A stretch of 37,308 nt of DNA, from the NCBI GenBank assembly GCA_043743635.1, contig JAYTWC010000571.1, positions 1 through 37,308 on the forward strand, written 5' to 3'. Origin of the DNA: Verrucomicrobiota bacterium (GTDB lineage Bacteria > Verrucomicrobiota > Verrucomicrobiia > Opitutales > Opitutaceae). A model generated the notes under the pieces. That model made no database searches. It saw only the letters and a list, made by a program, of their open reading frames with translations, and was not told where the DNA came from. A program made the translations under genes and the position numbers. Below, piece after piece: positions 19,409 to 37,308 of the stretch (position 1 is the first letter of the stretch; the number at the start of each line of letters is the position of its first letter).

Positions 19409-19455
19409 ATGTCCTTCCAAACGCCATCGCCGATGCACTGGAGAACATTGAGTAG

Positions 19456-19575
19456 TTGGCCCAAAGCCGCCTCGAACTCGACCTCAACGACGGCGCAAAG
19501 GTCAACAATCTCAAACTCGGCGAATCCCTCTCGCATCAACCGTCCAGAGGTAAAAAAACTGATTGGTCATCCTAG
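19456..19575 (+). pseudogene. Relic 3' end of a pglX-type methyltransferase gene (40 codons including stop)
   Basis: Reads LAQSRLELDLNDGAKVNNLKLGESLSHQPSRGKKTDWSS* and is about 90% identical at nt level to 15660-15737. It is immediately preceded by an in-frame TAG (19453-19455). Its stop lies 9 nt before the next gene's start. Confidence 0.75.
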
Positions 19576-19596
19576 ACTGCCCCAATGACTAATCAG
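19559..19596 (+). promoter_or_regulatory. 12-bp stem / 14-nt loop hairpin that sequesters the start codon of the 19585 gene
   Basis: CUGAUUGGUCAU (19559-19570) pairs with AUGACUAAUCAG (19585-19596), giving 11 Watson-Crick pairs plus one G-U. The right arm begins with the AUG. Confidence 0.4.
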
Positions 19597-20541: not shown

Positions 20542-22733
20542 GCGTCTCCTCTGCCATCGACCCGACGGCGGGGCCTTCCAGTTTTGCTCTGCCACTACGG
20601 CATATCGCCTCCTGGCATGACATCCCTGAAATCACCGAACGTCCGCAGCCACGAGCAAGCGTGCCCGTGTTGCAACGCGGCCTCGTTTGGAACCCTGCGC
20701 AGATCGAATTACTTTGGGACTCGATTCTTCGAGGATTCCCAATCGGAGCGTTAGTTTTGAGCGCCAAAATATCGGGGCAAACCAAGGCCAATGAAGAGAC
20801 AAGAACCGATATCACACATCATTTGCTAGATGGGCAACAACGATGCGATGCTATCGCGCTTGGTTATAAAGATCCGTTCGGCACCTTGCATGGACAATCT
20901 GAAAGCAAAGCCGGCACATCCATTCTTTGGCTTGATCTCGATCCCCTAAAAAATCAGTGGAGCACGCGGGAATTCGTCGTCCGCCTGACCACGCCCTCGC
21001 ACCCGTGGGGTTATACGCGAAACGATGATGCCTTTCCGCTCGGCGCACAAATCATCCGGGAAGCTCTGAAACGTATCGGCCAAAATCCTGCGGCAGAAAA
21101 TTACCGGCGGCCGACACCCGCCGAGCTTTGTCCTCAAGCTGCGAAAACACCAGTACCCTTGGCCTGGCTGCTCCTCAATGGGCAAGAGGCTGATTTTTGG
21201 GGCACTCTGCTCACGCACTTACCGGAGAAGGATGATTTGCCGTGGCACGGCAGCCTCCGCGATTTCCTTAAGGACCCAGAGAAAGAGCCGCAACGTACAC
21301 GTATTTTGAATGCGGTCCGGCGAATCGAGCACACCAGAATCATTGGCCTATGTGCGCCAAATTTGGACTTGGATTCCCGGCAGGAGACTGAGAGTGCGCC
21401 CGAGCGCGCCAATATTTCCAGTATCGAGCACCTCTTTCAGCGGCTCAATCAGCAAGGCACTCCGCTCGACGGTGAGGAGCTGGCCTACTCTATGATCAAG
21501 GCCTACTGGCCGGAGCTCGCAAGTCCCATAGACACAATCGAGAAACCGATGCCTGCCACTCGGCTAATTTCACTTGGTATCCGCGCCGCATTGGCTGGAG
21601 AGAATCGCGAACACCTTCCCGCCGCCTTGGGAGTAAGCCAAATCCGCAAGTTGGCGGGCAAACAGGATGACCGGACATCGCTCGTATATAAATACATTAA
21701 CAATGACCTGGCGCACGGGTGCAAACGGGTGAGCCAATGGCTGCGCTACGATGCAGAGCTAAACCCGAGTGGGCTCCTTCCGGTGCATATCGCCTGTATA
21801 GCCCATGACTCGCCGGACCTTTTCCTGCTGCTACTAACCTTCGCCCAACGCCCAGACACAGATTGGCAGATCCCAGAGTCAGAGCGAGCGCGTTGCATAC
21901 AAGCCATGGCTACAGTCGTGCATTGGTTCGGTCGCGACAAACCGGCCATTGCCAACCGCCTTTTTGCGGCCTGCGGAGAGCACATCACCCACCAAAAGAT
22001 CCAACTCGCTTTAGCCGGGGCGCTGCAAGCGGGCCACCTCCGCCCTGTCCACTCTCCGAAGACAGTCGAGGCCTTTTTCCATGAAATGCCTCAGACCGTC
22101 CTTCTGAATTGGAACTGGGGGACCATAGGACATGGCGACAAGTCTGACGAAGAGCGTAAGAAAATCTGGGATCGCTGGGGCGAGTTTCTCTGGTTCAGAG
22201 ACAAGAAAGAGCTGCTCGTGTATGCCCAACGCGATTTTCTCCATCGGCGATTTCCCGAATACGATCCGGCCCGGAAAGATTTTTGGAAGGGCCACAACCG
22301 TCCGTGGGATTACGACCACATCCTGGCCAATACCTACGTTCACGGTAAGCAGGGTGATTATAAAAGCGCTTGTGCGGAATGGGTGAACACCATTGGAAAT
22401 TTCCGAGCTTGGCCGATGGAGGACAATCGTTCGGATCAAGAGGAGACCGCGCAGAAGAAAGTACCGGAGACCGATGCGACATCGAAAACAAACTCGCGAA
22501 GAGACAGTTTTCTCGAAAACGATAACCTCGCTGCATTCTCTCAGGGGCACGAGACAAGGAAGAAACCGGAACTCGCGGCGGCTTTCATCGCAGCCTGCCG
22601 CGATCGAATGCTCAGAATCTATCGGACTTGGTATGAATCGGTCGGAGTTGCAGATTTGATCACCCCAGATCAAAAACCTACTCGTGCCATTGAATCACAC
22701 CCAACCTCACTGATCGCTTCGGCGACGCCTTAA
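20538..22733 (+). CDS. DUF262/DUF1524 protein, GmrSD-family type IV restriction enzyme (BrxU-like)
   Basis: 731 aa. The N-terminal DUF262 motifs are LQRGLVWNPAQIELLWDSILRGFPIG and DGQQR. The C-terminal His-Me finger-like region is WDYDHILA...NTIGNFRAWPMEDNRSD. The position inside a BREX locus parallels BrxU. Confidence 0.8.
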   Translation: MSVSSAIDPTAGPSSFALPLRHIASWHDIPEITERPQPRASVPVLQRGLVWNPAQIELLWDSILRGFPIGALVLSAKISGQTKANEETRTDITHHLLDGQQRCDAIALGYKDPFGTLHGQSESKAGTSILWLDLDPLKNQWSTREFVVRLTTPSHPWGYTRNDDAFPLGAQIIREALKRIGQNPAAENYRRPTPAELCPQAAKTPVPLAWLLLNGQEADFWGTLLTHLPEKDDLPWHGSLRDFLKDPEKEPQRTRILNAVRRIEHTRIIGLCAPNLDLDSRQETESAPERANISSIEHLFQRLNQQGTPLDGEELAYSMIKAYWPELASPIDTIEKPMPATRLISLGIRAALAGENREHLPAALGVSQIRKLAGKQDDRTSLVYKYINNDLAHGCKRVSQWLRYDAELNPSGLLPVHIACIAHDSPDLFLLLLTFAQRPDTDWQIPESERARCIQAMATVVHWFGRDKPAIANRLFAACGEHITHQKIQLALAGALQAGHLRPVHSPKTVEAFFHEMPQTVLLNWNWGTIGHGDKSDEERKKIWDRWGEFLWFRDKKELLVYAQRDFLHRRFPEYDPARKDFWKGHNRPWDYDHILANTYVHGKQGDYKSACAEWVNTIGNFRAWPMEDNRSDQEETAQKKVPETDATSKTNSRRDSFLENDNLAAFSQGHETRKKPELAAAFIAACRDRMLRIYRTWYESVGVADLITPDQKPTRAIESHPTSLIASATP

Positions 22734-22746: not shown

Positions 22747-25251
22747 ATGAAGCGCATCCACGAAAGCCTCAAACTCGTTCTCCAGCGCCACCGGCTCGTT
22801 TTCTGGTATGACGCGACCCGCGAATGGGAGAAAGCCTACGAAGCCTTCGTTGCCGACGGAGTGCGTAAAATCACAGTCGCGGGCACGGAGTTTGGCGCCA
22901 AAGTTGCCATCCATCGTGCACCCGAGGAACGGTTCCTCGTCTATCTACCCAGCGCCCGCCCCCTCGATGCGGACAACTGGCTGCTCGATCTCTTGCTCCA
23001 GGGTCATGAGTACAAAGCCGATCGCGCTTCACTCGCATTGCAGGATGTCGGTCTTCCCTACGAACTGCGGCCCGTGATCGAGGCGCATGTGAGCTTTTTC
23101 GATTCGCCCAAACGAATTGAGACGTTGCGCGGATTGCTCGTGTCAAACGAGGAGCCTGCCTCCCTTCGGCGAAAGCTCATGGCGGTAGCGGCTGGTTCAA
23201 CTTTGCCCGAGATTGATGCCGTGTTGCTGGCCTTCCTCGCCCGCACTCAAGAAGCTCAAGGCAACGACCTGGTCGATATGGTACAAGGAACATTTGGCGG
23301 TTTTGGCTTGACCGTTCCGTTTTGGCGAGAGGTAAACCTCGCTTTCAGCTACGAAAGTGAAACGCCGTCACTGAAGGACTTTTCGCGGTCGCTCTTTCGG
23401 GCCGCCAACCCACTCGACCACGGGATAAAGCTGAGCGCACACGCGCAGGTGTTTCTCCAACACTGGAAAGACAGCCAGGCATTTAGTCCCGCCTATCGTC
23501 GTTGGGCCGCGCTGATGGAAAGCGAACTCAACCTTGACCATCAGCTGGACGCCCTGGATGACATGCGGCTGCTCGGCAATTGTGATGCCTTTCCTCTGAT
23601 GGAACGCTACGTTTTGCATCGGCTTTGCGGAGCGTTTGAGACCGACAGCCTGTCCAGCACCGAGCTACTGGCCCGCATCCAACAACGAAAGAGCTCTTTT
23701 TGGTACAGCGATCACCGTCACGGTTACGCCGCGCTGGAGCAGGCCATCGACCTTAAGCAACGGCTCGCTGGTGCTGAGTTAAGAATCGAGTCAATCGACG
23801 TCGGTATTCAGCGGTACACGACAACGTGGCATCGCATCGATACGGCCTATCGCAAGTTTCACTTCCATGCGCGCAGCTACGGTCAGATCGGGCTTTTGGG
23901 CCGAATTGCCGAACGAGTTGAAAAGACCTATCTGGCTAACTTCTTGCTACCGCTAGCAGATCGCTGGGGCGACCAAGTTGCAAAGCTGCCAGCGTGGCCA
24001 GGAGAGGTTTCGGTGGCGAAGCAGGTGGATTTCTACGACCGCTACGTGAAGCCATTTGTCGAGAAGGGACAAAAGGTCTGCGTTATTATTTCTGACGCAC
24101 TTCGATACGAGATCGGTGTGGAACTGATGGAGCGTCTGCTTGCCGAAAACCGGTGGAAAGCGGAAATCGAGCCCCTGTTAGGCGTATTGCCAAGTTATAC
24201 CCAGCTCGGCATGGCCGCACTTCTACCTGGATCGGTTCGGTCGATAAATCTCGATACCCGCACGGTGACAATCGACGGCAAGTCTTCCGCTGGCACTGAA
24301 GCCAGAAATGAAATTCTCGCGGCCGCAGTTTCATCACCGGCGGGTGCGTTGAAGGCAGAGGATTTCATGGAGATGAATACCGGGACCGAAGCTCGCGCCG
24401 TGATCCGTGATCACCAAGTCATCTACATCTACCACAATGTCATTGATGACACCGGGGACAAACTCGCCACCGAAGCACAGACCACCGAGGCGATCGAAGA
24501 GGCACTCGATGGTCTGCTAAAGCTGATAAAAAAAGCAGTGAATGCTAACGCCAGCCAGATACTGCTCACCGCCGACCACGGGTTTCTATTTCAACAAACT
24601 GATGTTTCAGAGACGGACGACTTACCGCTTCCTTCGGCCGAGTGGCTCTTCCCCCACCGGCGTTTCGCACTCGGACGCAACCTCAGGTCTTCAACGGGGG
24701 TAAAGACTTTCACCGCCGAGGCGCTCGGTCTGACCGGCGACTTTGTCGCGGCCTTCCCGCTGGCACTCGGACGATTTCCACTAAAAGGATCTGGCAAACG
24801 ATTCGTCCACGGAGGCTTCAGCCTACAGGAAGTGCTGGTGCCGGTTCTGCGTATCCATAAAACCCGTACAGACGACACTGAACGCGTCGAAATCGACCTG
24901 CTCCGAGCTCCAACCAAGATCACGACGGGACGCGTGTCGCTCACGCTTTACCAAGACCGACCGACAGCGACTAAGGTGCTCGGCCGTAACCTACGTGTGG
25001 GTATCTTCACAGTGGATGGAGTAGCCATCTCGGAACTCAAAACACTCGCGTTTGACTCAACTGAGGCAGAGGCGCGCCAGCGTGAAACCGTGATCGATTT
25101 GGCGCTCTCCCGTGCGGCCGATCCTTTCAACGGGAAAGAAGTCGAGATCCGCATTGAGGAAGTGACCGCCGGCAACCAGAATGCCCTGCCCTATAAATAC
25201 CACCGCCTGAAATTGCAGAAACCATTCGCAACCGACTTCGATGAGCTCTGA
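22747..25251 (+). CDS. pglZ: BREX alkaline-phosphatase-superfamily protein PglZ
   Basis: 834 aa. The N-terminus has RLVFWYD. PglZ-domain motifs are VCVIISDALRYEIG and LLTADHGF. It is followed by brxL with an 11-nt overlap. Confidence 0.9.
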   Translation: MKRIHESLKLVLQRHRLVFWYDATREWEKAYEAFVADGVRKITVAGTEFGAKVAIHRAPEERFLVYLPSARPLDADNWLLDLLLQGHEYKADRASLALQDVGLPYELRPVIEAHVSFFDSPKRIETLRGLLVSNEEPASLRRKLMAVAAGSTLPEIDAVLLAFLARTQEAQGNDLVDMVQGTFGGFGLTVPFWREVNLAFSYESETPSLKDFSRSLFRAANPLDHGIKLSAHAQVFLQHWKDSQAFSPAYRRWAALMESELNLDHQLDALDDMRLLGNCDAFPLMERYVLHRLCGAFETDSLSSTELLARIQQRKSSFWYSDHRHGYAALEQAIDLKQRLAGAELRIESIDVGIQRYTTTWHRIDTAYRKFHFHARSYGQIGLLGRIAERVEKTYLANFLLPLADRWGDQVAKLPAWPGEVSVAKQVDFYDRYVKPFVEKGQKVCVIISDALRYEIGVELMERLLAENRWKAEIEPLLGVLPSYTQLGMAALLPGSVRSINLDTRTVTIDGKSSAGTEARNEILAAAVSSPAGALKAEDFMEMNTGTEARAVIRDHQVIYIYHNVIDDTGDKLATEAQTTEAIEEALDGLLKLIKKAVNANASQILLTADHGFLFQQTDVSETDDLPLPSAEWLFPHRRFALGRNLRSSTGVKTFTAEALGLTGDFVAAFPLALGRFPLKGSGKRFVHGGFSLQEVLVPVLRIHKTRTDDTERVEIDLLRAPTKITTGRVSLTLYQDRPTATKVLGRNLRVGIFTVDGVAISELKTLAFDSTEAEARQRETVIDLALSRAADPFNGKEVEIRIEEVTAGNQNALPYKYHRLKLQKPFATDFDEL

Positions 25252-27409
25252 CCCAATGCTGCCTCCCGTTCCGCCCGAACCTGCATCTGCGGAAGAGACA
25301 ACGCCCCCACCCCCACCGGTCAATCTCGGCCCCTTGGATCGGAAGATTGTCGACGCCTTCCCCGGCTTGGTTGTCCGCAAAGACATCACCAAGGGCCTGA
25401 AACAAAATGCGGTCGTGCCCACGTACGTTCTCGAATATCTGCTGGGCCAGCACTGCGCCACGGACGATGAGGCAACCATCCGCACGGGCCTGGAGTCGGT
25501 AAAACGGATTCTCGCCAAGCACTACGTTCATCGCAACGAAGCGGAATTGACGAAGTCGATCATCAAGGAACGCAGTCGGCACAAAGTCATCGACAAGGTG
25601 ACGGTGGAGCTGAACGACAAGATCGGTATTTATGAGGCGGAGTTTACCAATCTTGGCCTGCGCAAAGTACCCACGCCCGACGATTTCGTCCGCCGCCATC
25701 CTAAACTATTGGTAGGTGGAATCTGGTGTATCACGGAAATCACTTACGAGGTGAACGAGGATGGCAAGGCCAGCCCTTGGCACATCGATAGCCTCAAGCC
25801 GATTCAGGTTTCGAAAGTCGACTACGAGGAATACCTGAAAGCTCGGGCCAAATTTAGCACAGACGAATGGATCGACACGCTCGTACAGAGCCTCGGCTTC
25901 AATCCCGAAATGCTGACTCGCCGGGCAAAGCTACTTCAGCTGTTGCGCTTCGTGCCGTTCTGCGAACGTAACTACAACCTGCTTGAGCTCGGTCCGAAGG
26001 GTACCGGCAAATCTCACGTTTATGCGGAATTTTCTCCACATGGCATGTTAATCTCGGGGTCGGAAGTCACCGCGCCAAAACTTTTTGTCAGCAATTCATC
26101 GGGCAAGATCGGCCTCGTCGGCTTCTGGGATTGCGTGTGCTTCGATGAGTTCGCCGGAAAGGACAAGAAAGTCGACAAGGCCCTTGTCGACATCATGAAA
26201 AACTACATGGCCAACCGGTCATTTTCACGCGGCATCGAGCAGCTCACTGCGGAGGCCTCGATGGTTTTCATGGGCAACACCAAGAAGTCGGTCGCGTACA
26301 TGTTGAAGCACTCACACTTCTTCGAGCAGCTGCCGGACAAATATATCGATTCCGCGTTTCTCGATCGTCTGCATGCGTTCAGCCCTGGCTGGGAAGTCGC
26401 GCCGATCCGCAACGATCTTTTCACGAACGGCTATGGCTTCATCGTCGATTACTTCGCCGAAATTCTGAAACACCAGCGTACAGAAGATTTCACCAGTGCT
26501 TACAAGACGGGTTTTGAAATTACGTCTGAAATCTCCACTCGTGATCAGACCGGCCTTGAGAAGACATTTTCCGGGATGATGAAGATTCTGCATCCTCACG
26601 GTGGTGCCACGGCTGACGAGATCGAAGAACTGCTTTCGTTTTCGATGGAATGCAGACGACGCGTGCGGGAGCACTTGCTGCGCATCGACGACACCTTCAA
26701 GCCACACGACTTCATCTATCGCAGGAAGGATAGTGGCGCGACGAAGACCGTGCTCACGCCCGAGGAAATTCAATATCCGGCCTTCGCAGGAGCCCATCGC
26801 CCCCAACTCGATGGAGAGACAAATGAACCGCTCGCCGAAACCATCGCCAGCGCCACGGCCAACGAACCAATCAGTAAAATTGTGGCCCCTGCCGCCGTCA
26901 TACCCAAAATTGTAGCTACTGTTGGTGCACAGCCTGGGCATATCGTGATTCCGGAGAACACGAAGGGATGGAGCTATCGCCGGATATTCGCGAAACACCT
27001 AGAGGGCGCGCACAAAATCACCGTACGCGATCCCTTCGTTCGTGCATTCTTTCAAGCCCGCAATTTCATGGAGTTTCTCCAGGTCGTGCATGACGTGGTA
27101 CCCGAAGGCGACGAGGTGGAGGTGCATTTGATCACCCAGTCCGACATGGACACATGCGTGAAGCAGGAAGAAAACCTAAACCAATTGGTGCAGAGTTTTA
27201 CCGGCTCCCGTGTCGCATTCTCGTGGGAGTTAGACCACAGCCCCAACTTCCACGCGAGAAGCATTACAACAGACAGCGGCTGGAAAATCATGATCGACCG
27301 TGGTCTCGATATATTTCAACGCTTCGAGACCGGCGCTTTTTCTCTGGAGCAAGCAATGCAGGAAGCGCGGCTTACACGCGGCGCCGAAGTGACGTACGTT
27401 AAGCTTTGA
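25241..27409 (+). CDS. brxL: BREX Lon-like protease/ATPase BrxL
   Basis: 722 aa. It shows the typical BrxL N-terminal region (FPGLVVRKD...VPTYVLEYLLGQ), Walker A (GPKGTGKSH) and Walker B-like (CFDEFAG). It is the last gene of the type 1 BREX order. Confidence 0.9.
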   Translation: MSSDPMLPPVPPEPASAEETTPPPPPVNLGPLDRKIVDAFPGLVVRKDITKGLKQNAVVPTYVLEYLLGQHCATDDEATIRTGLESVKRILAKHYVHRNEAELTKSIIKERSRHKVIDKVTVELNDKIGIYEAEFTNLGLRKVPTPDDFVRRHPKLLVGGIWCITEITYEVNEDGKASPWHIDSLKPIQVSKVDYEEYLKARAKFSTDEWIDTLVQSLGFNPEMLTRRAKLLQLLRFVPFCERNYNLLELGPKGTGKSHVYAEFSPHGMLISGSEVTAPKLFVSNSSGKIGLVGFWDCVCFDEFAGKDKKVDKALVDIMKNYMANRSFSRGIEQLTAEASMVFMGNTKKSVAYMLKHSHFFEQLPDKYIDSAFLDRLHAFSPGWEVAPIRNDLFTNGYGFIVDYFAEILKHQRTEDFTSAYKTGFEITSEISTRDQTGLEKTFSGMMKILHPHGGATADEIEELLSFSMECRRRVREHLLRIDDTFKPHDFIYRRKDSGATKTVLTPEEIQYPAFAGAHRPQLDGETNEPLAETIASATANEPISKIVAPAAVIPKIVATVGAQPGHIVIPENTKGWSYRRIFAKHLEGAHKITVRDPFVRAFFQARNFMEFLQVVHDVVPEGDEVEVHLITQSDMDTCVKQEENLNQLVQSFTGSRVAFSWELDHSPNFHARSITTDSGWKIMIDRGLDIFQRFETGAFSLEQAMQEARLTRGAEVTYVKL

Positions 27410-28814: not shown

Positions 28815-29330
28815 ATGCCTCCCATCCTCATTTTCGTCATCATAATCGCTTTTGTACTCGTGGCCGTTGTTGCCGTGCTGAAGGCAAAACTCGGCTCGAC
28901 CGACGACAACAAGGGCGACGGCAGCGCCTATGAATTGAGAGGCCCGATCCTGACACCGGCGGAACGTTCGTTCATCGGTGTATTGGAAAACTCACTACCT
29001 GACGGCATCAGCTTGTTGGCCAAAGTGCGTCTCGGCGACATCTTCAAACCCCGCAGAGGCCTCTCTCCTGCCCTCCGCACTCGCGCCGGCAATAAGATCA
29101 ACCAAAAGCACGTGGACTTTTTGCTCGTACGCACGACCGACGTCACGCCGGTAGCAGGAATCGAACTTGATGATCGCTCGCACGAACGAGCCGACAGAAA
29201 ACAACGCGACACCTTCGTCGATGAAGTCTTCCGCGCCTGCAATCTACCGCTCCTCCACGTCCCCGCGAAAGCCACATATAGCGTCACCGAACTACGCAGC
29301 CAGATCGCTGGAGTGATTCACCGCCAATAA
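28815..29330 (+). CDS. DUF2726-like membrane-anchored protein (restriction-endonuclease-like fold)
   Basis: 171 aa with an N-terminal TM helix (ILIFVIIIAFVLVAVVAVL). The pattern ILTPAERSF...LAKVRLGDIF...QKHVDFLLV...PVAGIELDDRSHE...RDTFVD is typical of DUF2726. Confidence 0.65.
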   Translation: MPPILIFVIIIAFVLVAVVAVLKAKLGSTDDNKGDGSAYELRGPILTPAERSFIGVLENSLPDGISLLAKVRLGDIFKPRRGLSPALRTRAGNKINQKHVDFLLVRTTDVTPVAGIELDDRSHERADRKQRDTFVDEVFRACNLPLLHVPAKATYSVTELRSQIAGVIHRQ

Positions 29331-29626
29331 TTCGCTTAGCCGTTTCCCAACCCTCGCGCATTTATCGTGAGCGGGCAAGACGGCAGCACGACACACGCCC
29401 GTGAAATCACATTCCCTCAACCCCAGACTTGACCAATCAAGTCGCAGCCACCTCCCTCGCCATAACCATCCACTTTCGCCAATAGTGTTCCATCTTTTAC
29501 CCAAGTCGCCCCGGACTCAGGCACAGTTCCGCCTCGCCTGCCCGACGCATATTGCTGCCACCCATAACGCTGGGTTCTAAAAACCATACGGAAGCGGAAA
29601 CATTGTTACTATATTTTCGGATTCTA

Positions 29627-29645
29627 GTCGGTCATCTATTGTCCG
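29627..29645. promoter_or_regulatory. Palindromic operator candidate, site 1: TCGGTCA-TCTAT-TGTCCGA
   Basis: 7-5-7 inverted repeat with one mismatch, 56 nt upstream of ATG29702 at the head of the small-ORF/WYL-regulator unit. The same motif occurs at 33273-33291 and 34691-34709. Confidence 0.55.
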
Positions 29646-29701
29646 ACCAATGGAGGTATTCTTAGGGCGTTTCAAAACCCACCCACCATCGTCCTCCTTC
29701 C

Positions 29702-29920
29702 ATGAACCGAACGCCCACCGCCGCCAAAATCACATCGGGTCGCATTGTCGATATCTATGATCGGTGCGGAAATTACCTGCACCGCGTCAATGTCAGCCCA
29801 CGTCAGGCAATCGCTGCCGTGGTCACACCGGATACGCTCACCGTCAGCCTCGTTGATGGACACGTGCAGGTGTTTGCACTGAGCAAAAATACTTCGCCCG
29901 TACTGCGCTACACTCGGTGA
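29702..29920 (+). CDS. Small hypothetical protein (72 aa) upstream of the WYL regulator
   Basis: ORF with GC3-rich codon usage similar to its neighbours. No motif recognised, and whether it is coding is uncertain. Confidence 0.35.
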   Translation: MNRTPTAAKITSGRIVDIYDRCGNYLHRVNVSPRQAIAAVVTPDTLTVSLVDGHVQVFALSKNTSPVLRYTR

Positions 29921-30000
29921 AAACGGCACGCTCAGGCAGCATCGTGAGTGTTCATGCTTGGCGGTGGTTCCTGTCCCAGCTAGGCTCGCTCCACCTCCAG

Positions 30001-30993
30001 ATGCCCCCCATCGCCAAGCTTTCACGCCCTCCGCTGGCCCGGATGCTCAAGATCGACGAATTGCTCCAGTCGGGAAAATATCCCAACTGCTCCTCCGTCG
30101 CCAAACTGCTGGAAATCTCCGTCAAAACCGCGCAGCGCGACATTGAGTTCATGCGCGACCAGATGAACCGACCGATCGAATACGACCAGCCCCATCGCGG
30201 TTATTATTACACAGAGAAAGTTTCGGGTTTCCCCACCGTTCAAGTGAGCGAGGGCGAAGTGCTGGCGCTCCTCGTCGCCGGCAAGGTCTTGGAGCAATAC
30301 CAAGGCACACCCTATGAAAAACAGCTCACCGCCGCCTTCGAGAAACTGACCGGCGCACTCGATCAGACGATCAGTTTCACGCCCGGCGCAGGACTGGCAG
30401 CCGTGTCGTTTGGTAGTGTCGGCCAGGCCGAGATGGATCTCACGACTTATGACGCGTTAAGCAAAGCCGTACTCGGCCGACACGAGATCGAGTTCGACTA
30501 TCGGAAGCCCGGTTCCAAAAAGCCCGAGCGCCGCCGCGTGCAGCCGTACCACCTAGCCTACCGCGACAACCTCTGCTACGTCATCGGCCAGGATGTCACC
30601 AAAAAAGCACTACGCCAGTTCGCCCTGCCGCGCATGAGCAACGTGAGCCTGCGCAAGGAAACCTTCACGGTACCGGCGGATTTTTCAGCCGAGGAGTATT
30701 TCAAAGGCGCGTTCGGCGCTCAAGGCGGCACCGGCGATTATCACGTGCGCATCCGCTTCGACGCCCAAGCCGCGTTCTATATTAAGGAACGTCGGTGGCA
30801 TCCGACTCAGAAAATAAAAGAACTGCGCGGAGGCGCGATCGAACTATCCCTCCACCTCAGCGATCTCGAAGAAGTCGAACGCTGGATACTGAGCTGGGGA
30901 GTGCATGCAGAGGTGATCGACCCCGCCGAATTTTCTGCGCAGATACTAAAAACTGTACATCAACTATATCTAAAATTATCACAGTCTCCATGA
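30001..30993 (+). CDS. HTH-WYL-WCX transcriptional regulator (BrxR/CapW/PafBC-like)
   Basis: Track ORF starts at GTG29917, but ATG30001 (MPPIAKLSRPPLARMLKIDELLQSGKYPN) fits the family N-terminus. The HTH is SSVAKLLEISVKTAQRDIEFMRD. The WYL core is RRVQPYHLAYRDNLCYVIGQD...LRQFALPRMSNVSL. The C-terminal WCX-like region is RWHPTQKI...WILSWGVHAEVIDP. Confidence 0.8.
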   Translation: MPPIAKLSRPPLARMLKIDELLQSGKYPNCSSVAKLLEISVKTAQRDIEFMRDQMNRPIEYDQPHRGYYYTEKVSGFPTVQVSEGEVLALLVAGKVLEQYQGTPYEKQLTAAFEKLTGALDQTISFTPGAGLAAVSFGSVGQAEMDLTTYDALSKAVLGRHEIEFDYRKPGSKKPERRRVQPYHLAYRDNLCYVIGQDVTKKALRQFALPRMSNVSLRKETFTVPADFSAEEYFKGAFGAQGGTGDYHVRIRFDAQAAFYIKERRWHPTQKIKELRGGAIELSLHLSDLEEVERWILSWGVHAEVIDPAEFSAQILKTVHQLYLKLSQSP

Positions 30994-31598
30994 AATCACT
31001 GCCCATCGATAAGAAAGCAAAGTCGCAATGGGAACGAGCACAACATGCATACGATCATTATAGACTTTACGTGACCAATAAAAATGGCAATGCGCCCTTT
31101 GCCTTATCATTTATCGACTTTATTTACGTAAAGAATTTCAAAGGCGGTTCTGCCACAATAGCTGAGCCACGTGAATCTTTTGATAAGAAGAAGATTGTTT
31201 ATGAAAAAAAATTAGAGGCGTTCGCTTCTTTCACAAAAAAGAAATGGGCTGCAATGAATGATTCCGAGCATAAATCCTTGAGCGAGCAGATAGTTTCCTT
31301 TGCAGCTATTCCAAGCCATGATGAATCACATATATCTGGTTTCGGTGAGTCATTTTCATCGGCATTGCTGCATTTTCATTTTCCTAATCATGCTCCTATT
31401 CTTGATAAGCGAGCCCTCAATGGAGCAAGAATCGATGGAATGATAGTAGATGCATATAAAAACGTCAAAAATATGCTTAGCCTATACCCTCGTTTATTAG
31501 ACTTTTTTTATGAACGCTTGAAAGAAAACAAAGAAAGTACTGTGCGGGTAATTGATCAGGAATTATTTATTCAACCCCTTAGGGCACCTCTTAAATAA
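30990..31598 (+). CDS. Orphan hypothetical protein, strongly low-GC
   Basis: 202 aa from ATG30990, internal to track ORF 30795..31598, with ATGA overlap to the WYL gene stop. Hand counts over 31021-31260 give about 33-42% GC, against about 55-60% in flanking genes. The protein is K/F/N-rich and no family is recognised. Confidence 0.6.
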   Translation: MKSLPIDKKAKSQWERAQHAYDHYRLYVTNKNGNAPFALSFIDFIYVKNFKGGSATIAEPRESFDKKKIVYEKKLEAFASFTKKKWAAMNDSEHKSLSEQIVSFAAIPSHDESHISGFGESFSSALLHFHFPNHAPILDKRALNGARIDGMIVDAYKNVKNMLSLYPRLLDFFYERLKENKESTVRVIDQELFIQPLRAPLK

Positions 31599-31617
31599 GT
31601 ATATTGTATTTGCACAC

Positions 31618-32394
31618 TCAGTACCCCAACTCCATCCTCGCCATCATTTCCTCCGACAGGCCTGCCGCTTTCATCACAGCGATGCAGGCCTTTATATTGT
31701 AGGCGACACGGATGAAGGTCGCGCTGAATTTGTCAGTATCATAAATCATATATTGTGCTCGCGGGTCCGGTTGGTGAATCGGTGTGCGCGGGTTTCCGAC
31801 GCTCCCTGGATTTAGCGCGTAACGGAAGTTCGGTCCCAGCCTGAACGTGCAGGTTTTCGGTTGTGCAGGGATAAACCGATCTCCGCCTTCCTGCCAGAAA
31901 CCAGCCGCGTGCGTGTGCCCGTAAAAGGCGGTACGCGTGGGTTGCCTCCGAAACGAAGCCGCCGCCTCATTCGGCGTGTCGAGATAGCCCCACTTCTCCG
32001 GCTGATGAAAACTGCCATGCGTACACGCCACGCCCCATGCCTGAGCGGTGTAGGGCAGTTGACGCAGCCAATCCCTCGAATCCTTCGTCGATCGGCGCTT
32101 CGTGCAGTCCATTCCCGAAATCGCCGTCGGCGCAGTTTCCTCAGGAGGCATGGCAACGGGCTGCAACGCCCAAACATCATGGTTGCCTTTGACGGTGACC
32201 GCCCCAATCGACCGAACCAGTTGAACACATTCCTCCGGCTGCGCGCCGTAGCCCACGATATCACCGAGGCAGAAGAAGCCGTCCGCACCGCGTCGCCGGG
32301 CGTCTTTCAACACGGCTTCGAATGCGTGGAGATTCGCGTGAATGTCGGAGAGCACGGCGATCTTCATAATATTACGGGATGATTGCTGAAGCAT
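31618..32394 (-). CDS. Metallophosphoesterase (YfcE/MJ0936-like), paralog 1
   Basis: Motifs are LSDIH, GDIVGYG, GNHD, THGS and GHTH. An alternative start is ATG at 32367 (MKIAVLSDIH). It lies 4 nt downstream of the LRR gene stop. It is a paralog of the partial CDS at 36657. Confidence 0.8.
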   Translation of the reverse strand: MLQQSSRNIMKIAVLSDIHANLHAFEAVLKDARRRGADGFFCLGDIVGYGAQPEECVQLVRSIGAVTVKGNHDVWALQPVAMPPEETAPTAISGMDCTKRRSTKDSRDWLRQLPYTAQAWGVACTHGSFHQPEKWGYLDTPNEAAASFRRQPTRTAFYGHTHAAGFWQEGGDRFIPAQPKTCTFRLGPNFRYALNPGSVGNPRTPIHQPDPRAQYMIYDTDKFSATFIRVAYNIKACIAVMKAAGLSEEMMARMELGY

Positions 32395-32398
32395 CCTC

Positions 32399-33250
32399 TC
32401 AGGCTTCCTCCGCAGAATCGTGCTCCGTCAGCTCTTGGTAAAAGGGCGAACTGTGCAGGTTGCGGTTCCAGACCAGAAGCAGTCCGCGCTCAGCGCAGAC
32501 ATCCGAGAAGCGACGGGCCTCGGCGGCGGGCACGCAAAAATCGCAACACGACAATCCACGGAGTGATGGCATTTCCAGGACAAACCATGGAAGCGCCTGA
32601 AGCGGGTTGCCGTCCGCATGGAGAAAGCGCAGGTGGCCCAGGTTGATGAGCCCGCCGGGAAGTTCGCGCAACAGATTGTTATCCACGCGCAATTCGCGTA
32701 ACTGGCGCAAACCGCCAAACGAACCATGGAGCTTACTCAGACGATTATTTGAGAGCGTGAGGTGAGTAAGCCGACGGCACAGGCCGAGGCTCGATGGAAT
32801 CGCAGGCAGCTCATTGCCCAACGTGAGATGGCGCAGTTGAGTGAGGCGGCCGATACTGAACGGTACGGATTCTAGGTTCCCACCAGCGACGATGAGTGTC
32901 TTGAGCTGCGCCAACTCTCCGATGCGTTCGGAAATATTCCGCACCTGAGTAAAACTGAACTCCAGCATTTCCAATTGCTGAAGCGCGTCGATGGCATCCG
33001 GGATTTTTCCGATCCGGTTGCCCATGAAATAGACCTTTCTCAATTCAGTGCAGGAAAAGATCTCGTTCGGTATCTGTTGAAACCGGTTCATATTCGCGTC
33101 CAGCGAGGTAATGCCTGTTGTGCGCGGCAGAGCGAAAGGCCACTGCTCAAGATCGCGACAAGCAACATCGAGTCGTCCTTTTTCCGAATCGAAACAGTGG
33201 TCGAAATCGAGAGGCGCATTGCCCAGTGGTGATTCGTTTTCATTTTGCAT
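32399..33250 (-). CDS. Leucine-rich repeat (LRR) protein
   Basis: 283 aa with about 9 tandem repeats of roughly 23 aa, of the LxxLxLxxNxLxxLP type (e.g. LTHLTLSNNRLSKLHGSFGGLRQLRELRVDNNLLRELPGGL). Confidence 0.8.
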   Translation of the reverse strand: MQNENESPLGNAPLDFDHCFDSEKGRLDVACRDLEQWPFALPRTTGITSLDANMNRFQQIPNEIFSCTELRKVYFMGNRIGKIPDAIDALQQLEMLEFSFTQVRNISERIGELAQLKTLIVAGGNLESVPFSIGRLTQLRHLTLGNELPAIPSSLGLCRRLTHLTLSNNRLSKLHGSFGGLRQLRELRVDNNLLRELPGGLINLGHLRFLHADGNPLQALPWFVLEMPSLRGLSCCDFCVPAAEARRFSDVCAERGLLLVWNRNLHSSPFYQELTEHDSAEEA

Positions 33251-33272
33251 GAAATCACCCTATCAAACGGCA

Positions 33273-33291
33273 TCGGACATTCGCTGTCCGA
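33273..33291. promoter_or_regulatory. Palindromic operator candidate, site 2: TCGGACA-TTCGC-TGTCCGA (followed by GTGAA)
   Basis: Perfect 7-5-7 inverted repeat in the 89-bp gap between the 442-aa gene and the LRR gene. It lies 22 nt from the LRR start codon. Confidence 0.55.
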
Positions 33292-33339
33292 GTGAACATG
33301 TTGCTCACGTTTTCATGGTCTGTGACGGTTACTCACGAG

Positions 33340-34668
33340 TTAGCCCACAAACCGCCACCAGAGCATCCGCTCACCGAGACAGGCGTTGATCCATTTCTCG
33401 AAATTGATCCCGGGAGGGAATATCTTGGCGATCTGTTTAATATGCTCTAACGGAATCTCGACATTACGCGGCCCTTTGATGTCGAGGATTTGCTTCTCTT
33501 CATCACCCATCGGACCGTTAAAAATCGCGAGCGTAGCCCGTACGGGCGCCATGACCCGGTAGAATGCAATCCGCCCACCCATGGCCGCACGGACGCATTT
33601 AATTGCACCAAGACAATTCAACATTTCATCGCCTTCCATCATCAATTTCTCCGGTGTGGCTATATACTCGATTTTGTCCGTACCTGGCACAGGCGCTGGC
33701 GGAAATACCAACTCTTTCAAATAGGGGCGCAGCCATTCCATAGGAGCCCGTGACGGCTTGCACCATTGAAGCGTTTTCGCGGTCTCAATATCGATAAATT
33801 TGGCATCTAGAAATTCGTTTATTTTCCAAAGGTGCCCGTGAAGCATTCTATTCATAACTCTCTTTGACTGCTTCAAACAACGAGGATCAAACCACTGCGC
33901 GGTCATGGGGTGAGTCAGGAAGATGATCAACGTGGCCAGTTCTCCTCCCGCCCGCTTCAAAATCGGGCCAAGAACCGGATCGCTCAGAAAAGTGAGGATG
34001 CGCTTGATCGCCATACCTGCACAAGATGTTCTGGCTGGCTTCAAAAGCCGCTCCAGCGCGTTGAGTGTGGATTGCTCCGGCGAAAAACCTAACCAGCCAA
34101 GAATATCGCGCCTTCGTCTGCCAATCTGCTGGCGCACCTCCGGCCAGTTTTTGCAGCGAACCCCAGGAAACTCCCAGTGCCGGGCAAGCGCGGTGGCGAG
34201 CAAGGGATTATGCTCAACCAAATCCATCGCGGCGGGTGCCTGTACAAACAATTCCACTGCGGAGAAAAAATCGCATTCAAGACGACCTGCGCATCGGAGA
34301 AGCGAAACAGGCAACATCGCCAACAGCTGCCGCCAGTGATGGCATCCATAGGCAAACCTGCGCTCGGGGTTTTCCATGACCCAGGCCATGCAAACCTGCC
34401 CAGTGCTTCGCTCGTAGAACGCATTCCCGTGAGGGATAAAAATGATACCGTTCCGAAACACGTATGAATCACCCCAAAAACCAGCAACCAGGAGGTCTCG
34501 GAAAGCGCAGCGTATCGACTGCCAGTCGTTTTTCGCCTGACGGCGCTCGGCAATCACTTCCGGCCAGACACGAAAGCGAAACAGCTCCTCGTCGTCGCTG
34601 TAATAGAGCCAGCCGTCACGAAAACCAAAACGAGGATGCGCTACCGCATGAGTGACATTTTTCAGCAT
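33340..34668 (-). CDS. Hypothetical protein, C-terminal region weakly PcfJ-like
   Basis: 442 aa. The C-terminal segment ATPEKLMMEGDEMLNCLGAIKCVRAAMGGRIAFYRV...RATLAIF...ILDIKGPRN resembles the PcfJ-like domain pattern, with H replaced by N. This is an assignment by eye only. Confidence 0.5.
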   Translation of the reverse strand: MLKNVTHAVAHPRFGFRDGWLYYSDDEELFRFRVWPEVIAERRQAKNDWQSIRCAFRDLLVAGFWGDSYVFRNGIIFIPHGNAFYERSTGQVCMAWVMENPERRFAYGCHHWRQLLAMLPVSLLRCAGRLECDFFSAVELFVQAPAAMDLVEHNPLLATALARHWEFPGVRCKNWPEVRQQIGRRRRDILGWLGFSPEQSTLNALERLLKPARTSCAGMAIKRILTFLSDPVLGPILKRAGGELATLIIFLTHPMTAQWFDPRCLKQSKRVMNRMLHGHLWKINEFLDAKFIDIETAKTLQWCKPSRAPMEWLRPYLKELVFPPAPVPGTDKIEYIATPEKLMMEGDEMLNCLGAIKCVRAAMGGRIAFYRVMAPVRATLAIFNGPMGDEEKQILDIKGPRNVEIPLEHIKQIAKIFPPGINFEKWINACLGERMLWWRFVG

Positions 34669-34690
34669 ACCCCCATGGTATTACTAGGCC

Positions 34691-34709
34691 TCGGACAACT
34701 GTTGTCCGA
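34691..34709. promoter_or_regulatory. Palindromic operator candidate, site 3: TCGGACA-ACTGT-TGTCCGA (followed by GTGAA)
   Basis: Perfect 7-5-7 inverted repeat centred in the 64-bp divergent intergenic region. It lies 22 nt from the 442-aa gene ATG and 23 nt from the DUF2779 ATG. Confidence 0.6.
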
Positions 34710-34732
34710 GTGAATGCAGTATTCTCCTCCCC

Positions 34733-36652
34733 ATGAAAAAGCCTTCGCCCTACCTCACCAAGTCCGACTTCAAGGCCTGTTTGGATTGCCGAACTAAGCT
34801 GTACTACCGCAAATACCGGTACGCCAGTTCGCTCGATGATGACGACTACATGCGTTTCCTCGCTGACGGTGGCTTCATGGTCGAAACAGTCGCAAAGGCT
34901 AAATATCCGTCGGGTGTCGATCTCGCCGACGAACGCGATCCACAAAAGGCATTTGCCGAGACAAAGCGGCGCATTGAAGCTGGCGATTGCGTGCTGTTCG
35001 AGGCTGCCGCGATTGCTGGAAAATACTATGTGCGGACAGATATATTAAAACGAGAAGGTCGTGTGCTACACCTGATCGAGGTGAAGTCATCGTCGCTCGG
35101 CGAAGAAGAGGAGGACGTGATGTCACCGTTTCTCACTAAGAAAGGCGAAGTCGCCAGTAAATGGTATCCGTACCTGACGGATGTGTCCTTTCAAACCCAT
35201 GTTCTGCGGCTAGCGTTTCCGGAATTTGAAGTGCGTCCGCAACTTTGCGTCATCGACAAAACCCAGCGCGTAACCGCAGCCGAAACCTTGGCTCACTTCA
35301 GCCTGCAACGTGATGCCGGCAACCCCAAGTCACGACCCGAGGTCAGCTATTCTGGCGATTTGAAAGATTTATTGGAGGCCAAGGTCGTCTGCTTCCATCC
35401 AGTTGAACACGAGGTGAGCTTACTGATGCCCGAGGTAACAGCCCGAGCCGAGGAATTGGCTGAATTGATCGCGCCCGATGGCACAACGACACGCGCCAAA
35501 GAAGATATTGCCGACAAATACCGGACATGCCGCGCATGCGAATATCGTCTTCACGACGATCCAAAAGACGGATTTCACGAATGCTGGCATCAACTGGCTG
35601 ACGCCAAACCCCACATACTCGAACTCTATCAGATTGGACGGATCGGTGGCGCCAAAGTGATCGATCCGGTCCCAGCGTTGCTGAAAAGAGGTAAGGCCTC
35701 ACTCCTAGATCTGGAAGCGTTCGAGTTAGGCAAGGAAGGGAACTTGCAACAGCGCCGACTGCTCCAGTGGCAGCATTCCAAAGATGGCGGCTCCGAGCAT
35801 CTGCCGACCGAACTGATCGCTGAGCTAAAATCCCACGAGACAAACCCAGGATGGCCGCTCCACTTCATGGATTTTGAAGCCTGCAACATCGCACTTCCTC
35901 ATCACGCCGGTTTGAAGCCGTACGAGCGGGTTGCCTTCCAATGGAGTGTTCACACCGTCAACCGCGATGGCTCGCTAGCTCATGCCGAATGGTTAAACAC
36001 AAAGAAGGATTTCCCGAATTTCGCCTTTGCGCAAACGCTCCGTGCGCAGATTAAAGACTCTGGCACGGTGTACGTGTGGTCGCCTTACGAAAAATCCACG
36101 CTCAGCCGTGTGTTGATCCAGATCGGCGAGTGGATTCACCGTGATTGCGAAGAGGCGGTGCGCGTTTCCGGCCTGCCCACACGAGCTGCACTGATGGACC
36201 TCGCCCAGTGGATTGACCAACTGCTCGGGCCAGAGGACGTCGACGGGAAACGGAACCACTCAACGCGAATTCGTGATCTGCACGACTTAGCCCGCAGTTA
36301 CTATTTCCATCCACGGATGGCCGGCCGTACATCCATCAAGGTGGTATTGCCCGCCATCTGGGAGTCCGATGCCGCGATCAGAAATCACCCGTGGTTTAAG
36401 AAATACCTAAAACTCGATCTCAATGGTAAACCACTCGACCCCTACAAGACGCTGCCGCCGTTGCCAGTCGAAGATGGAGAAGACGACGTCGTCCGTGAAG
36501 GCTCTGGCGCGGTTCGCGTTTATCAGGATCTAATTTTCACCGACACATCCGAACGCGACACCGAGAGTCGGCGCAGGCTTCTGCTTCAATACTGCGAACT
36601 GGATACCGCGGCCATGGTCATGATCTGGATGCATTGGAAAGCAGGAAAATAG
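34733..36652 (+). CDS. DUF2779 protein (N-terminal PD-(D/E)xK nuclease plus C-terminal RNase H-like/DEDD-like exonuclease module)
   Basis: 639 aa. The N-terminus is LTKSDFKACLDCRTKLYY. The nuclease core is D...LHLIEVKSS. The hallmark DUF2779 block is HFMDFEACNIALPHHAGLKPYERVAFQWSVH. Confidence 0.75.
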   Translation: MKKPSPYLTKSDFKACLDCRTKLYYRKYRYASSLDDDDYMRFLADGGFMVETVAKAKYPSGVDLADERDPQKAFAETKRRIEAGDCVLFEAAAIAGKYYVRTDILKREGRVLHLIEVKSSSLGEEEEDVMSPFLTKKGEVASKWYPYLTDVSFQTHVLRLAFPEFEVRPQLCVIDKTQRVTAAETLAHFSLQRDAGNPKSRPEVSYSGDLKDLLEAKVVCFHPVEHEVSLLMPEVTARAEELAELIAPDGTTTRAKEDIADKYRTCRACEYRLHDDPKDGFHECWHQLADAKPHILELYQIGRIGGAKVIDPVPALLKRGKASLLDLEAFELGKEGNLQQRRLLQWQHSKDGGSEHLPTELIAELKSHETNPGWPLHFMDFEACNIALPHHAGLKPYERVAFQWSVHTVNRDGSLAHAEWLNTKKDFPNFAFAQTLRAQIKDSGTVYVWSPYEKSTLSRVLIQIGEWIHRDCEEAVRVSGLPTRAALMDLAQWIDQLLGPEDVDGKRNHSTRIRDLHDLARSYYFHPRMAGRTSIKVVLPAIWESDAAIRNHPWFKKYLKLDLNGKPLDPYKTLPPLPVEDGEDDVVREGSGAVRVYQDLIFTDTSERDTESRRRLLLQYCELDTAAMVMIWMHWKAGK

Positions 36653-36656
36653 ACCC

Positions 36657-37308
36657 ATGCACAGACAAAGAGAGCTCAGAGCGCCTGATCAAAAAACTGT
36701 GCCCGCCAGAATCGCTGTCCTGTCGGACATTCATTCCAATCTGGACGCACTCAAAGCCGTGCTCCGGGACGCACGTCAGCGCGGAGTGGAAGCGTATCTC
36801 TGCTTGGGCGATATTGTGGGGTTCGGCCCAAAGCCAGAGGCATGCGTCCGGCTTATTCGTGCCACCGGCATGCCCACGATCCTTGGCAACCATGACGAAT
36901 GGGCGGTGTCGGCTGTTGGCAGGCAGGCAACGCCTTCGGCTGGGGCGGATTTCAAGGGTTTCAAAGACCCACTCTCGCCGCTCCACGCCGCATCCCGCGA
37001 ATGGCTGCGCACCCGGCCTCATCTTTTCGAGTCATGGGGGATGTCAGCGGCGCACAGTTCTTTCGCTTGTCCCGAAAAATGGAATTACCTCATCACACGC
37101 CAAGCGGCCATCGACTCCTTCCTTCAACAACCGACTGATATCGCCTTTTTCGGCCATACTCACACCCAGGGTTTTTGGGATGAGTCCAGTTCTTCATTCA
37201 CCGCGCCCACCGATTCGACTGAGTTCGCCCTGTGTCCCAATCGGCGTTACGCAATCAATCCCGGCAGTGTCGGCAACCCCCTTGATGATTCAGCGTTAGA
37301 GGCCTGTT
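36657..37308 (+). CDS. Metallophosphoesterase (YfcE/MJ0936-like), paralog 2, 3'-truncated by window end
   Basis: It is not in the ORF track because it has no stop within the window. My translation from ATG36657 is MHRQRELRAPDQKTVPARIAVLSDIHSNLDALKAVLRDARQRGVEAYLCLGDIVGFG...GNHDEW...FFGHTHTQGFW...YAINPGSVGNP. It starts 4 nt after the DUF2779 stop and is collinear with the 31618..32394 protein. Confidence 0.8.
   Translation, partial: MHRQRELRAPDQKTVPARIAVLSDIHSNLDALKAVLRDARQRGVEAYLCLGDIVGFGPKPEACVRLIRATGMPTILGNHDEWAVSAVGRQATPSAGADFKGFKDPLSPLHAASREWLRTRPHLFESWGMSAAHSSFACPEKWNYLITRQAAIDSFLQQPTDIAFFGHTHTQGFWDESSSSFTAPTDSTEFALCPNRRYAINPGSVGNPLDDSALEAC

Follow-up and report, generated by a model that had tools for sequence, protein, structure and literature searches.

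The stretch of DNA analysed here (hereafter the window: 37,308 nucleotides (nt) of contig JAYTWC010000571.1 from the Opitutaceae assembly GCA_043743635.1, phylum Verrucomicrobiota) carries, next to a type 1 bacteriophage-exclusion (BREX) island, a gene for a regulator with a WYL domain (30001-30993, plus strand), along with three copies of the 19-bp palindrome TCGGWCA-N5-TGTCCGA, which copies we refer to as boxes 1 to 3. The box is genuine, does not arise by chance, and is conserved, with constant spacing, along with the WYL family. From the sequence comparisons set out below, we consider it highly probable that the palindrome is the site of that WYL family and that the boxed genes are co-regulated; and the sequence, the position, and the relatives of the box point, with reasonable likelihood, to a WYL activator of the DNA-damage type rather than to a repressor of the BrxR/CapW type.

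A pattern search of the window returned three matches, at 29628-29646 (TCGGTCATCTATTGTCCGA), 33273-33291 (TCGGACATTCGCTGTCCGA), and 34691-34709 (TCGGACAACTGTTGTCCGA), and the same pattern gave no match in 100 dinucleotide-preserving shuffles of the window. An initial annotation, made from the letters alone, had held that the palindrome occurs at three sites only, which count we confirm: a search of the whole window with two mismatches tolerated revealed no further site, and a position weight matrix made from 40 related sites scored boxes 1, 2, and 3 at 21.1, 25.5, and 24.6 bits, respectively, the fourth-best position in the window reaching 4.4 bits and the top score among 50 shuffles being 17.9 bits. 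The positions given in that annotation were exact for boxes 2 and 3 and one base off for box 1 (29628-29646, not 29627-29645). Box 1 (TCGGTCA-TCTAT-TGTCCGA), which has one arm mismatch (T for A), lies 5' of an open reading frame (ORF) of 72 amino acids (aa), the WYL gene, and a 202-aa ORF; in the close relatives L001 and L002 the same place is taken by TCGGACA-N5-TGTCCAA. Box 2 (TCGGACA-TTCGC-TGTCCGA), between the 3' end of the gene for a 442-aa protein and the gene for a leucine-rich-repeat (LRR) protein, and box 3 (TCGGACA-ACTGT-TGTCCGA), between the 442-aa gene and a divergent DUF2779 gene, are perfect 7-5-7 palindromes, each followed directly by GTGAA, as had been described; and box 3 does sit, as also proposed, at the exact centre of the 64-bp divergent region 34669-34732. 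The BREX promoters are without the box, since in positions 1-29600, home of the brxA-brxL genes, neither the mismatch search nor the weight matrix found anything above chance.

All four promoters at the boxes of the window read TGTCCGA-N10-TANNNT, the hexamer lying exactly 10 nt past the palindrome on each side in use. The predicted -10 elements, as read from the sequence, would be TATTCT at 29657-29662 (plus strand) past box 1; TAGGGT at 33257-33262 (minus strand), preceded by the TGA of an extended -10 and located 6 nt before the ATG at 33250, past box 2; and, on the two sides of box 3, TACCAT at 34675-34680 (minus strand), 6 nt before the ATG at 34668, and TATTCT at 34720-34725 (plus strand), 7 nt before the ATG at 34733. 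The gaps from box to start codon measure 22 nt for the LRR gene (33250), 22 nt for the 442-aa gene (34668), and 23 nt for the DUF2779 gene (34733), which values agree with the 22-23 nt of the initial annotation; and since the ATG follows the predicted -10 by 6-7 nt at three of the four promoters, leaderless mRNAs are implied for those three. The fourth, with a predicted transcription start near 29670, would have a leader of about 30 nt up to the ATG at 29702, and L001 carries TATGCT at the offset matching 29657-29662 together with a conserved leader, GGGC(C)GTTTCAAA. We estimate the chance of finding TANNNT at one of two given positions at about 0.02 per promoter. The N9-10 spacing is also kept among non-orthologous promoters, of which the window has four, L205 has two, L206 has three, and L001, L002, and L005 have one each. 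None of the hexamers located 16-18 nt 5' of the predicted -10 elements of the four window promoters, read by eye, bears a resemblance to TTGACA; and a scan for consensus sigma-70 promoters yielded nothing at the boxes, with a site count not above that of shuffles. If the -10 is set at -12 to -7, the palindrome extends from about -41 to -23, its proximal half-site having the GTC at about -28 to -26. The transcription starts and the leaderless mRNAs at these predicted -10-only promoters are what we infer from this geometry. As a separate observation, the plus side of box 2 (33292-33388), which is not in use, has a poor -10 (TGCTCA) at N10, and 7 nt past that hexamer is an ATG that starts an ORF of 24 codons, antisense to the end of the 442-aa gene; this side could be what is left of a divergent promoter, or it could give rise to a short antisense RNA.

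The association of the box with the WYL family was followed in Verrucomicrobiota through 80 metagenome loci encoding WYL homologues plus five further loci. The exact pattern TCGGWCA-N5-TGTCCGA had no match in the first five related loci, the relatives using TGTCCAA or TGGGACA...TGTCCCA; for the related loci we therefore used the core GGACA-N5-TGTCC in place of the exact window pattern. With zero or one core mismatch, about 65 of the 80 loci had this core in the WYL promoter region (consensus TGGGACATTGCTTGTCCCAG), and the exact core matches amounted to about 50 against about 0.7 expected in the 708 kb involved. The proposal that the palindrome is an operator linked to the WYL regulator is thus supported by its recurrence at homologous loci. 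In the canonical loci the WYL gene is separated by the box from a divergent gene for a protein of about 208 aa, on whose side TANNNT at offset 9-10 plus an ATG at 21-25 are found in 51 of 55 non-redundant sequences, with variable bases in between; the four exceptions include three off-target sites with one mismatch. The N9-10 geometry is present on the WYL side too in the L005, L007, and L033 lineages as well as in the window's own clade (L001, L002). Some loci have extra boxes just 3' of the WYL gene (L084 at 5072 and 5138; L080 at 2326): the two of L084 are 66 bp apart and flank small ORFs with products ending in ...AAA or ...SAA, and the box of L080 precedes a gene whose product starts MLKGPAGALVYSPSDLIRFMESPF... 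and resembles the N-terminus of a PD-(D/E)XK nuclease.

The box also precedes homologues of the 442-aa and DUF2779 genes of the window. In L205 and L206 it stands, at the same spacing, before a gene for a homologue of the 442-aa protein: in L205 two boxes lie between an operon of HD, REase-ARP, and WYL genes and the 442-aa homologue, the second box reading N10-TATTCT-6-ATG; and in L206 three boxes stand before a small-ORF-plus-ERCC4 operon, a VWA gene, and a 442-aa homologue followed by a phosphoesterase. A DUF2779 homologue with 42% identity is found in the Opitutaceae genome L106, 3' of TCGGACA-N5-TGTCCGA-N10-TATCCT. In L002 a DUF2779 gene (636 aa, PF11074) comes directly 3' of the WYL gene, so that two genes which are neighbours in a relative flank the block 30994-34732 in the window. 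These occurrences support the earlier suggestion that a shared operator unites the genes between about 29.6 kb and the end of the window in one regulatory unit.

The regulator consists of winged helix-turn-helix (wHTH), WYL, and WCX domains in one polypeptide (Pfam WYL 7.6e-16, WCX 1.3e-17). More than 2,600 homologues were found at E<=1e-20, the top-listed named ones being all from Opitutaceae or other Verrucomicrobiota; the homologues have 325-330 aa, align from MPPIAKLSRPP, have HTH_11 recorded in many instances, and are in many instances named 'proteasome accessory factor B' by IMG. When the profile of the family was compared with the PDB—which comparison is a ranking by score and not a phylogeny, with DdaA and SiwR outside it—the matches were PafBC (3.7e-17), DriD (1.3e-14), PafB (1.8e-11), PafC (3.5e-6), CapW (2.2e-5), and BrxR (6.9e-4), those of CapW and BrxR covering a short part of the WYL domain only (E 2e-5 to 6e-3). 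A search of the PDB with the single WYL sequence at E<=0.01 recovered neither CapW nor BrxR, PafBC and DriD being the nearest. In a neighbour-joining tree the window protein belongs to a side clade together with L001, L002/L006, L048, and L205 (61-82% identity within; 82% and 65% identity of the window protein to those of L001 and L002, respectively), which clade is set apart from the large canonical one, to which it is about 50% identical. The side-clade genes are located in variable contexts with nuclease-like genes, and in five members (window, L001, L002/L006, L205) the box is found next to the member's own WYL gene, the upstream sequence of L048 not having been recovered.

The box shares core, spacer, and position with a group of WYL activators formed by DriD, PafBC, SiwR, and DdaA. 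DriD of Caulobacter crescentus is a wHTH-WYL-WCX homodimer that upon binding single-stranded DNA (ssDNA) activates a LexA-independent DNA-damage response; its site, ATACGAC-N7-GTCGTAT, contains CGACA-N5-TGTCG and lies over the -35 position, always equally far from the -10, in promoters devoid of a -35, and the driD gene is divergent from a target operon, one site being common to both (PMC13004042). The likeness to the window extends to domain order, the GACA-N5-TGTC core (DriD site ATACGACAGTAACTGTCGTAT), the position over -35, the distance to the -10 (about 10-11 nt after TGTCG in the DriD promoter, by our own count, and 11-12 nt here), the divergent target, and five of the eight ssDNA-contact residues of DriD, Y168, S172, R178, Y192, and R204 being kept and W206 being replaced by F (PMC9186387). 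The two differ, for their part, in R176, R207, and Y240, which are not conserved here; in that identity is only about 25-30% over WYL-WCX, with no significant alignment of the HTH region; in the outer base of the half-site, which is G here and C in DriD; and in that three of the four targets here are predicted to be leaderless, in another phylum and with other target genes. In addition, an invariant Lys (K42) of the window family appears to stand in the place of the first Arg of the DriD recognition helix.

PafBC of Actinobacteria, the best PDB match, acts as a heterodimer by 'sigma adaptation' via a -26 element, the triplet GTC being recognized between -23 and -28 where promoters have no -35 (PMC8635444); here, likewise, a -35 is absent, the predicted -10 is canonical, and TGTCCGA has its GTC at about -28 to -26. 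Whereas PafBC is a heterodimer or a fusion with a single asymmetric site and a regulon of about 150 genes that includes canonical SOS genes, the window has a single gene and a 19-bp site of two-fold symmetry—which combination implies a homodimer—and only a few accessory genes. In Mycobacterium smegmatis, SiwR, a homodimeric WYL activator induced by genotoxic stress, recognizes an imperfect palindrome of 19 bp within the approximately 60 bp between divergent genes (PMC10693628), and is the closest to box 3 in scale and layout, with its site between the -35 and -10 positions and few adjacent genes controlled; its targets, though, are DinB/YfiT-like and depend on one site, versus three sites and four transcripts here, and the likeness is one of layout and not of compared sequences. 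In Moraxellaceae, the WYL activator DdaA serves both DNA-damage genes and genes of anti-phage defence and binds CGWCA-N5-TGWCG (PMC12392091); the spacer and the GWCA/TGWC core are the same, and damage sensing is coupled there to genes in defence loci, whereas the box here is located at about -32, and DdaA has replaced LexA, while LexA-like boxes persist at three of five sampled Verrucomicrobiota recA loci. We found no paper on this WYL family or this box in Verrucomicrobiota. The mechanism class is already established; what is unusual here are the predicted leaderless targets, a constant, uncharacterised neighbour protein, and three boxes beside a BREX island.

On these grounds we propose that a homodimeric wHTH-WYL-WCX regulator, either the product of 30001-30993 or a paralogue of equal specificity, would bind the three palindromes and stand in for the missing -35 contact at -10-only promoters, as do DriD, PafBC, and SiwR. 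The WYL domain would bind ssDNA arising from DNA damage or from phage or plasmid replication, and the regulator would thereupon recruit RNA polymerase, so that four transcripts, three of them leaderless, would be switched on together: the first with the 72-aa ORF, the WYL gene, and the 202-aa ORF, which would close a positive feedback loop; the second with the LRR protein and a first metallophosphoesterase; the third with the 442-aa protein, possibly with read-through into the LRR gene; and the fourth with the DUF2779 protein and a second metallophosphoesterase. That the window's own WYL protein is the one that binds, that it activates, what signal it receives, and where transcription begins we infer by analogy with the regulators just compared, from which analogy activation appears a fairly likely mode of action. 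We take the boxed genes for a real local regulon of five or six genes, probably induced by ssDNA or DNA damage.

Several points weigh against this proposal, and we take them up together with the alternatives on which they bear. The strongest alternative, though in our judgement an unlikely one, is the repression of the BrxR/CapW type, in which a WYL dimer would block RNA polymerase at the four promoters in unstressed cells and leave upon binding a ligand, for example ssDNA. The initial annotation had favoured this possibility, invoking the repression of adjacent defence operons; and the domain architecture does equal that of BrxR and CapW, the locus adjoins a BREX island, and the operator is an inverted repeat with a 5-bp spacer, as in the BrxR site (PMC9122601). 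Furthermore, a palindrome over a promoter is a classical repressor arrangement too, the box overlapping a region that RNA polymerase must contact; and on the WYL-gene side of the canonical loci it fills the -35-to-spacer region, with TAAAAAAT 4-11 nt past the box and the distal half-site GGGACA at -35, which geometry looks like autorepression, so that the family can probably repress as well. The argument from the missing -35 has its own weakness, in that the 318-aa gene of the BREX island (start at 19585), which has no WYL box, also shows TAGACT, 6 nt, and ATG (19565-19587): leaderless -10-only promoters may be common in the source organism, and the absence of a -35 says little if Verrucomicrobiota promoters are generally without one. 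Nor would induction upon damage tell the two models apart, since CapW-type repressors are reported to sense ssDNA too (PMC11662680). A further point against the proposed activator is that three residues by which DriD contacts ssDNA (R176, R207, and Y240) are not conserved in the window protein. Against repression, however, the profile of the family matches PafBC and DriD better by about ten orders of magnitude than CapW and BrxR; the 11-bp repeat of BrxR is located downstream of the -10, repression being by steric block (PMC9122601), whereas all four box-promoter pairs here have the box upstream of the -10, at one fixed distance and with no -35; the BREX operon, which such a repressor might be expected to control, has no box at its promoters; and the boxed genes are not recognised defence systems, since PADLOC gave no significant match to them other than a marginal one for the first phosphoesterase (PDC-S10, E 0.0011). 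The GWCA-N5-TGWC core, moreover, is of the DdaA/DriD type. The BrxR/CapW assignment and the repression of defence operons are therefore the parts of the initial annotation that we do not retain.

The link of the proposed activator to DNA damage was examined through a scan of a genome collection with the pattern TCGGACA-N5-TGTCCRA-N9-10-TANNNT, which returned at least 80 loci. Among the 80 matches listed, 18 belong to Verrucomicrobiota or related phyla, which probably make up only a few percent of the collection, and about three quarters are chance matches in unrelated phyla, the source genome of the window not being represented; a test for intergenic position by stop-free frames encountered long stop-free frames everywhere in these GC-rich genomes. 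The box precedes, among these 18 loci, recA (L120, L124; Pfam RecA 2e-131 for L124), recC (L140), the genes of two PD-(D/E)XK proteins of about 1000 aa that are AddB-like in appearance (L110, L147), and WYL genes and several small ORFs at leaderless spacing, so that the box is not confined to this locus, which also counts against the BrxR/CapW model. Three of the matches outside the Verrucomicrobiota are in Moraxella (L092, L118, L152; Moraxella osloensis and Moraxella sp.), of the family where DdaA was described, the core there being GGACA versus the published CGWCA of DdaA.

That scan, however, selected for the motif, and as a control we took five Verrucomicrobiota recA loci picked without reference to it. 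None of the five has the box with one mismatch or fewer, and three have GTGAAC-N4-GTTCAC or a near variant, a palindrome that we call LexA-like only for its resemblance to GAAC-N4-GTTC boxes; the link to DNA damage thus appears weaker than at first sight. The possibility that the box is a phylum-wide recA or SOS-type box was rejected in that general form, and its presence at recA is restricted to some lineages. The Pelagicoccus control locus carries a degenerate ACGACA-N5-TGTCTGA-N10-TATATA. In this small sample the recA promoters are of two types, with a LexA-like box (L208 at 1410, L210 at 1410, L209) or with the WYL-type box (L120 at 1245, L124 at 2162, L212), and no recA locus of the sample has both, which distribution suggests a lineage-specific replacement of one recA control by the other. 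The GTGAA that follows boxes 2 and 3 (33292-33296 and 34710-34714) is identical to the left half of GTGAAC-N4-GTTCAC, the palindrome that other Opitutales have at recA; the right half is absent from both places (GTGAAC-ATGT-TGCTCA and GTGAAT-GCAG-TATTCT). The boxed genes of the window are nuclease-like or of no assigned role and are not classical repair genes; and in the loci compared, the WYL gene and the 208/442-aa family are what stays constant in the predicted regulon, the nuclease and recombination genes coming and going.

A further alternative, which we deem quite improbable, is that the boxes are read mainly by another protein, be it a canonical WYL paralogue elsewhere in the genome or an unrelated factor such as the 208/442-aa family. 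The window protein is in the side clade, at about 50% identity to the canonical one, and the same core box serves that canonical clade; a second, canonical WYL protein in the source genome might be the real or an extra binder. In the same direction, the box occurs far from any WYL gene, as at recA in L120 and L124, and no neighbour of the box is more constant than the 208-aa family. Yet the five side-clade members enumerated above all have the box beside their own WYL gene, no DNA-binding domain was detected in the 208/442-aa family, and the box is of the type that DriD and DdaA bind. The last alternative, that the palindromes are RNA hairpins acting as terminators or as processing or stability elements rather than DNA operators, can be practically set aside: each box could fold into a 7-10-bp hairpin (-10.6 to -14.4 kcal/mol), and box 2 is located 49 nt past the stop codon of the 442-aa gene, but the z-scores of folding are only -1.2 to -3.2, there is no U-tract, an Rfam search of 29000-37308 returned nothing relevant, boxes 1 and 3 lie upstream of the predicted -10 (box 3 between divergent start codons) and would thus be untranscribed, and many single-arm changes in homologous loci break the pairing and are uncompensated (e.g., TGAGACA...TGTCCCA and TGGGACA...TGGCCCA).

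The gene that follows box 3 on the minus side (33340-34668) encodes the 442-aa protein, whose residues ~20-250 are homologous to the 208-aa protein (BLASTP E 1e-5 to 1e-8), as was also evident from a comparison with the 208-aa family by hhalign (probability 98.2%, E 4e-14, residues 27-253). Its homologues P0123, P0130, P0131, and P0133 have a PcfJ-like C-terminal part (PF14284). The protein itself found no match in Pfam, NCBIfam, or PADLOC, and its AlphaFold2 model, with a pLDDT of 82.6, no fold match in the PDB (best E 1.1). Almost all of the ~208-aa proteins of L005-L083 (e.g., L017 at 5958, minus side) end in ...(H/S)ALAA, which end resembles the C-terminal ssrA/ClpXP degradation tag and suggests a short-lived 208-aa protein; the 442-aa relative in the window lacks that tail.

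With respect to the remaining boxed genes, the 72-aa ORF (29702-29920, plus strand) has no Pfam family and is conserved 5' of this WYL clade, being 51% identical to the 72-aa ORF of L002/L003/L004/L006; in L002 its ATG comes 21 nt past the box, in leaderless geometry. The WYL gene has its likeliest start at the ATG 30001, which gives 330 aa, within a frame open from the GTG 29917. The 202-aa ORF (30990-31598, plus strand), for which the family libraries searched hold no homologue, has an ATG that overlaps the WYL stop codon (ATGA), from which overlap it would belong to the WYL operon. The kilobase 31001-32000, which spans this ORF and the 3' part of the first phosphoesterase gene, has the lowest G+C content of the window (45% vs 55%) and may have been acquired recently. 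Past box 2 on the minus strand come the LRR protein (283 aa, 32399-33250; Pfam LRR_4, LRR_8, LRR_14) and, as second gene of that operon, metallophosphoesterase 1 (258 aa, 31618-32394; Pfam Metallophos_2), which is 63% identical to the phosphoesterase that trails the 442-aa homologue in L206. On the plus strand, the DUF2779 protein (639 aa, 34733-36652; Pfam DUF2779) matched no sequence in the PDB and no NCBIfam model; by inspection, its N-terminus reads as Cas4/RecB-like with a cysteine cluster, and its DUF2779 domain has a DFE motif, which features would make it a putative nuclease. Metallophosphoesterase 2 (36657-37308, plus strand), a paralogue of the first, starts 5 nt past the DUF2779 stop codon, runs off the end of the window, is absent from the ORF list, and has 50% identity to the L206 phosphoesterase (tblastn); a 221-aa TTG ORF at 36634-37299 was rejected as a gene, since phosphoesterase 2 occupies another frame there. 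A phosphoesterase is thus the last gene in both the 442-aa unit and the DUF2779 unit.

Sensing of ssDNA by WYL regulators is emerging as a second, LexA-independent means of coupling DNA damage or phage attack to gene expression, worked out so far only in Actinobacteria, Caulobacter, and Moraxellaceae; the locus and its relatives would extend this to a fourth phylum, with a box known by its sequence, promoters of fixed geometry, and a set of candidate genes. They also mark several uncharacterised proteins next to the BREX island as probable stress-induced effectors, namely the 208/442-aa family, the putative DUF2779 nuclease, and the paired phosphoesterases. We advance as a tentative idea that the Verrucomicrobiota have an undescribed WYL-based stress circuit of their own, including an effector module beside BREX. 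If this is true, the core of the circuit would be the palindrome common to the WYL gene and the divergent leaderless 208-aa gene, and in some lineages this circuit, not LexA, would sit at recA. The side-clade regulator would then have gathered box-wired cassettes beside BREX—the 442-aa fusion of a 208-aa domain with a PcfJ-like part, the LRR protein, the two phosphoesterases, and the DUF2779 nuclease—which cassettes could be a new anti-phage or anti-plasmid effector module that is switched on by damage or ssDNA, as opposed to repair genes. For annotation, a WYL gene beside a defence island should not automatically be taken for a BrxR-like repressor.

The rest of the window, whose G+C content is 55% and in which few genes have a Shine-Dalgarno sequence, is made up of the type 1 BREX island, with BrxA, BrxB, BrxC, PglX, an inserted ABC-3C system, GmrSD, PglZ, and BrxL; after BrxL come three small genes, one of them for a DUF2726 protein, and then the boxed region. 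The BREX operon is broken between pglX and pglZ (15778-22733) by nested defence genes, namely a three-gene ABC-3C system (CTD7, MC3, and DUF3732 proteins), the 318-aa gene, and a gene for a GmrSD-type restriction enzyme. The BrxL homologue (25241-27409) has, in addition to the BrxL_N and BrxL_ATPase domains, a stretch at residues 576-721 that matches MIT_C, a phospholipase-D-like domain (E 7e-34).

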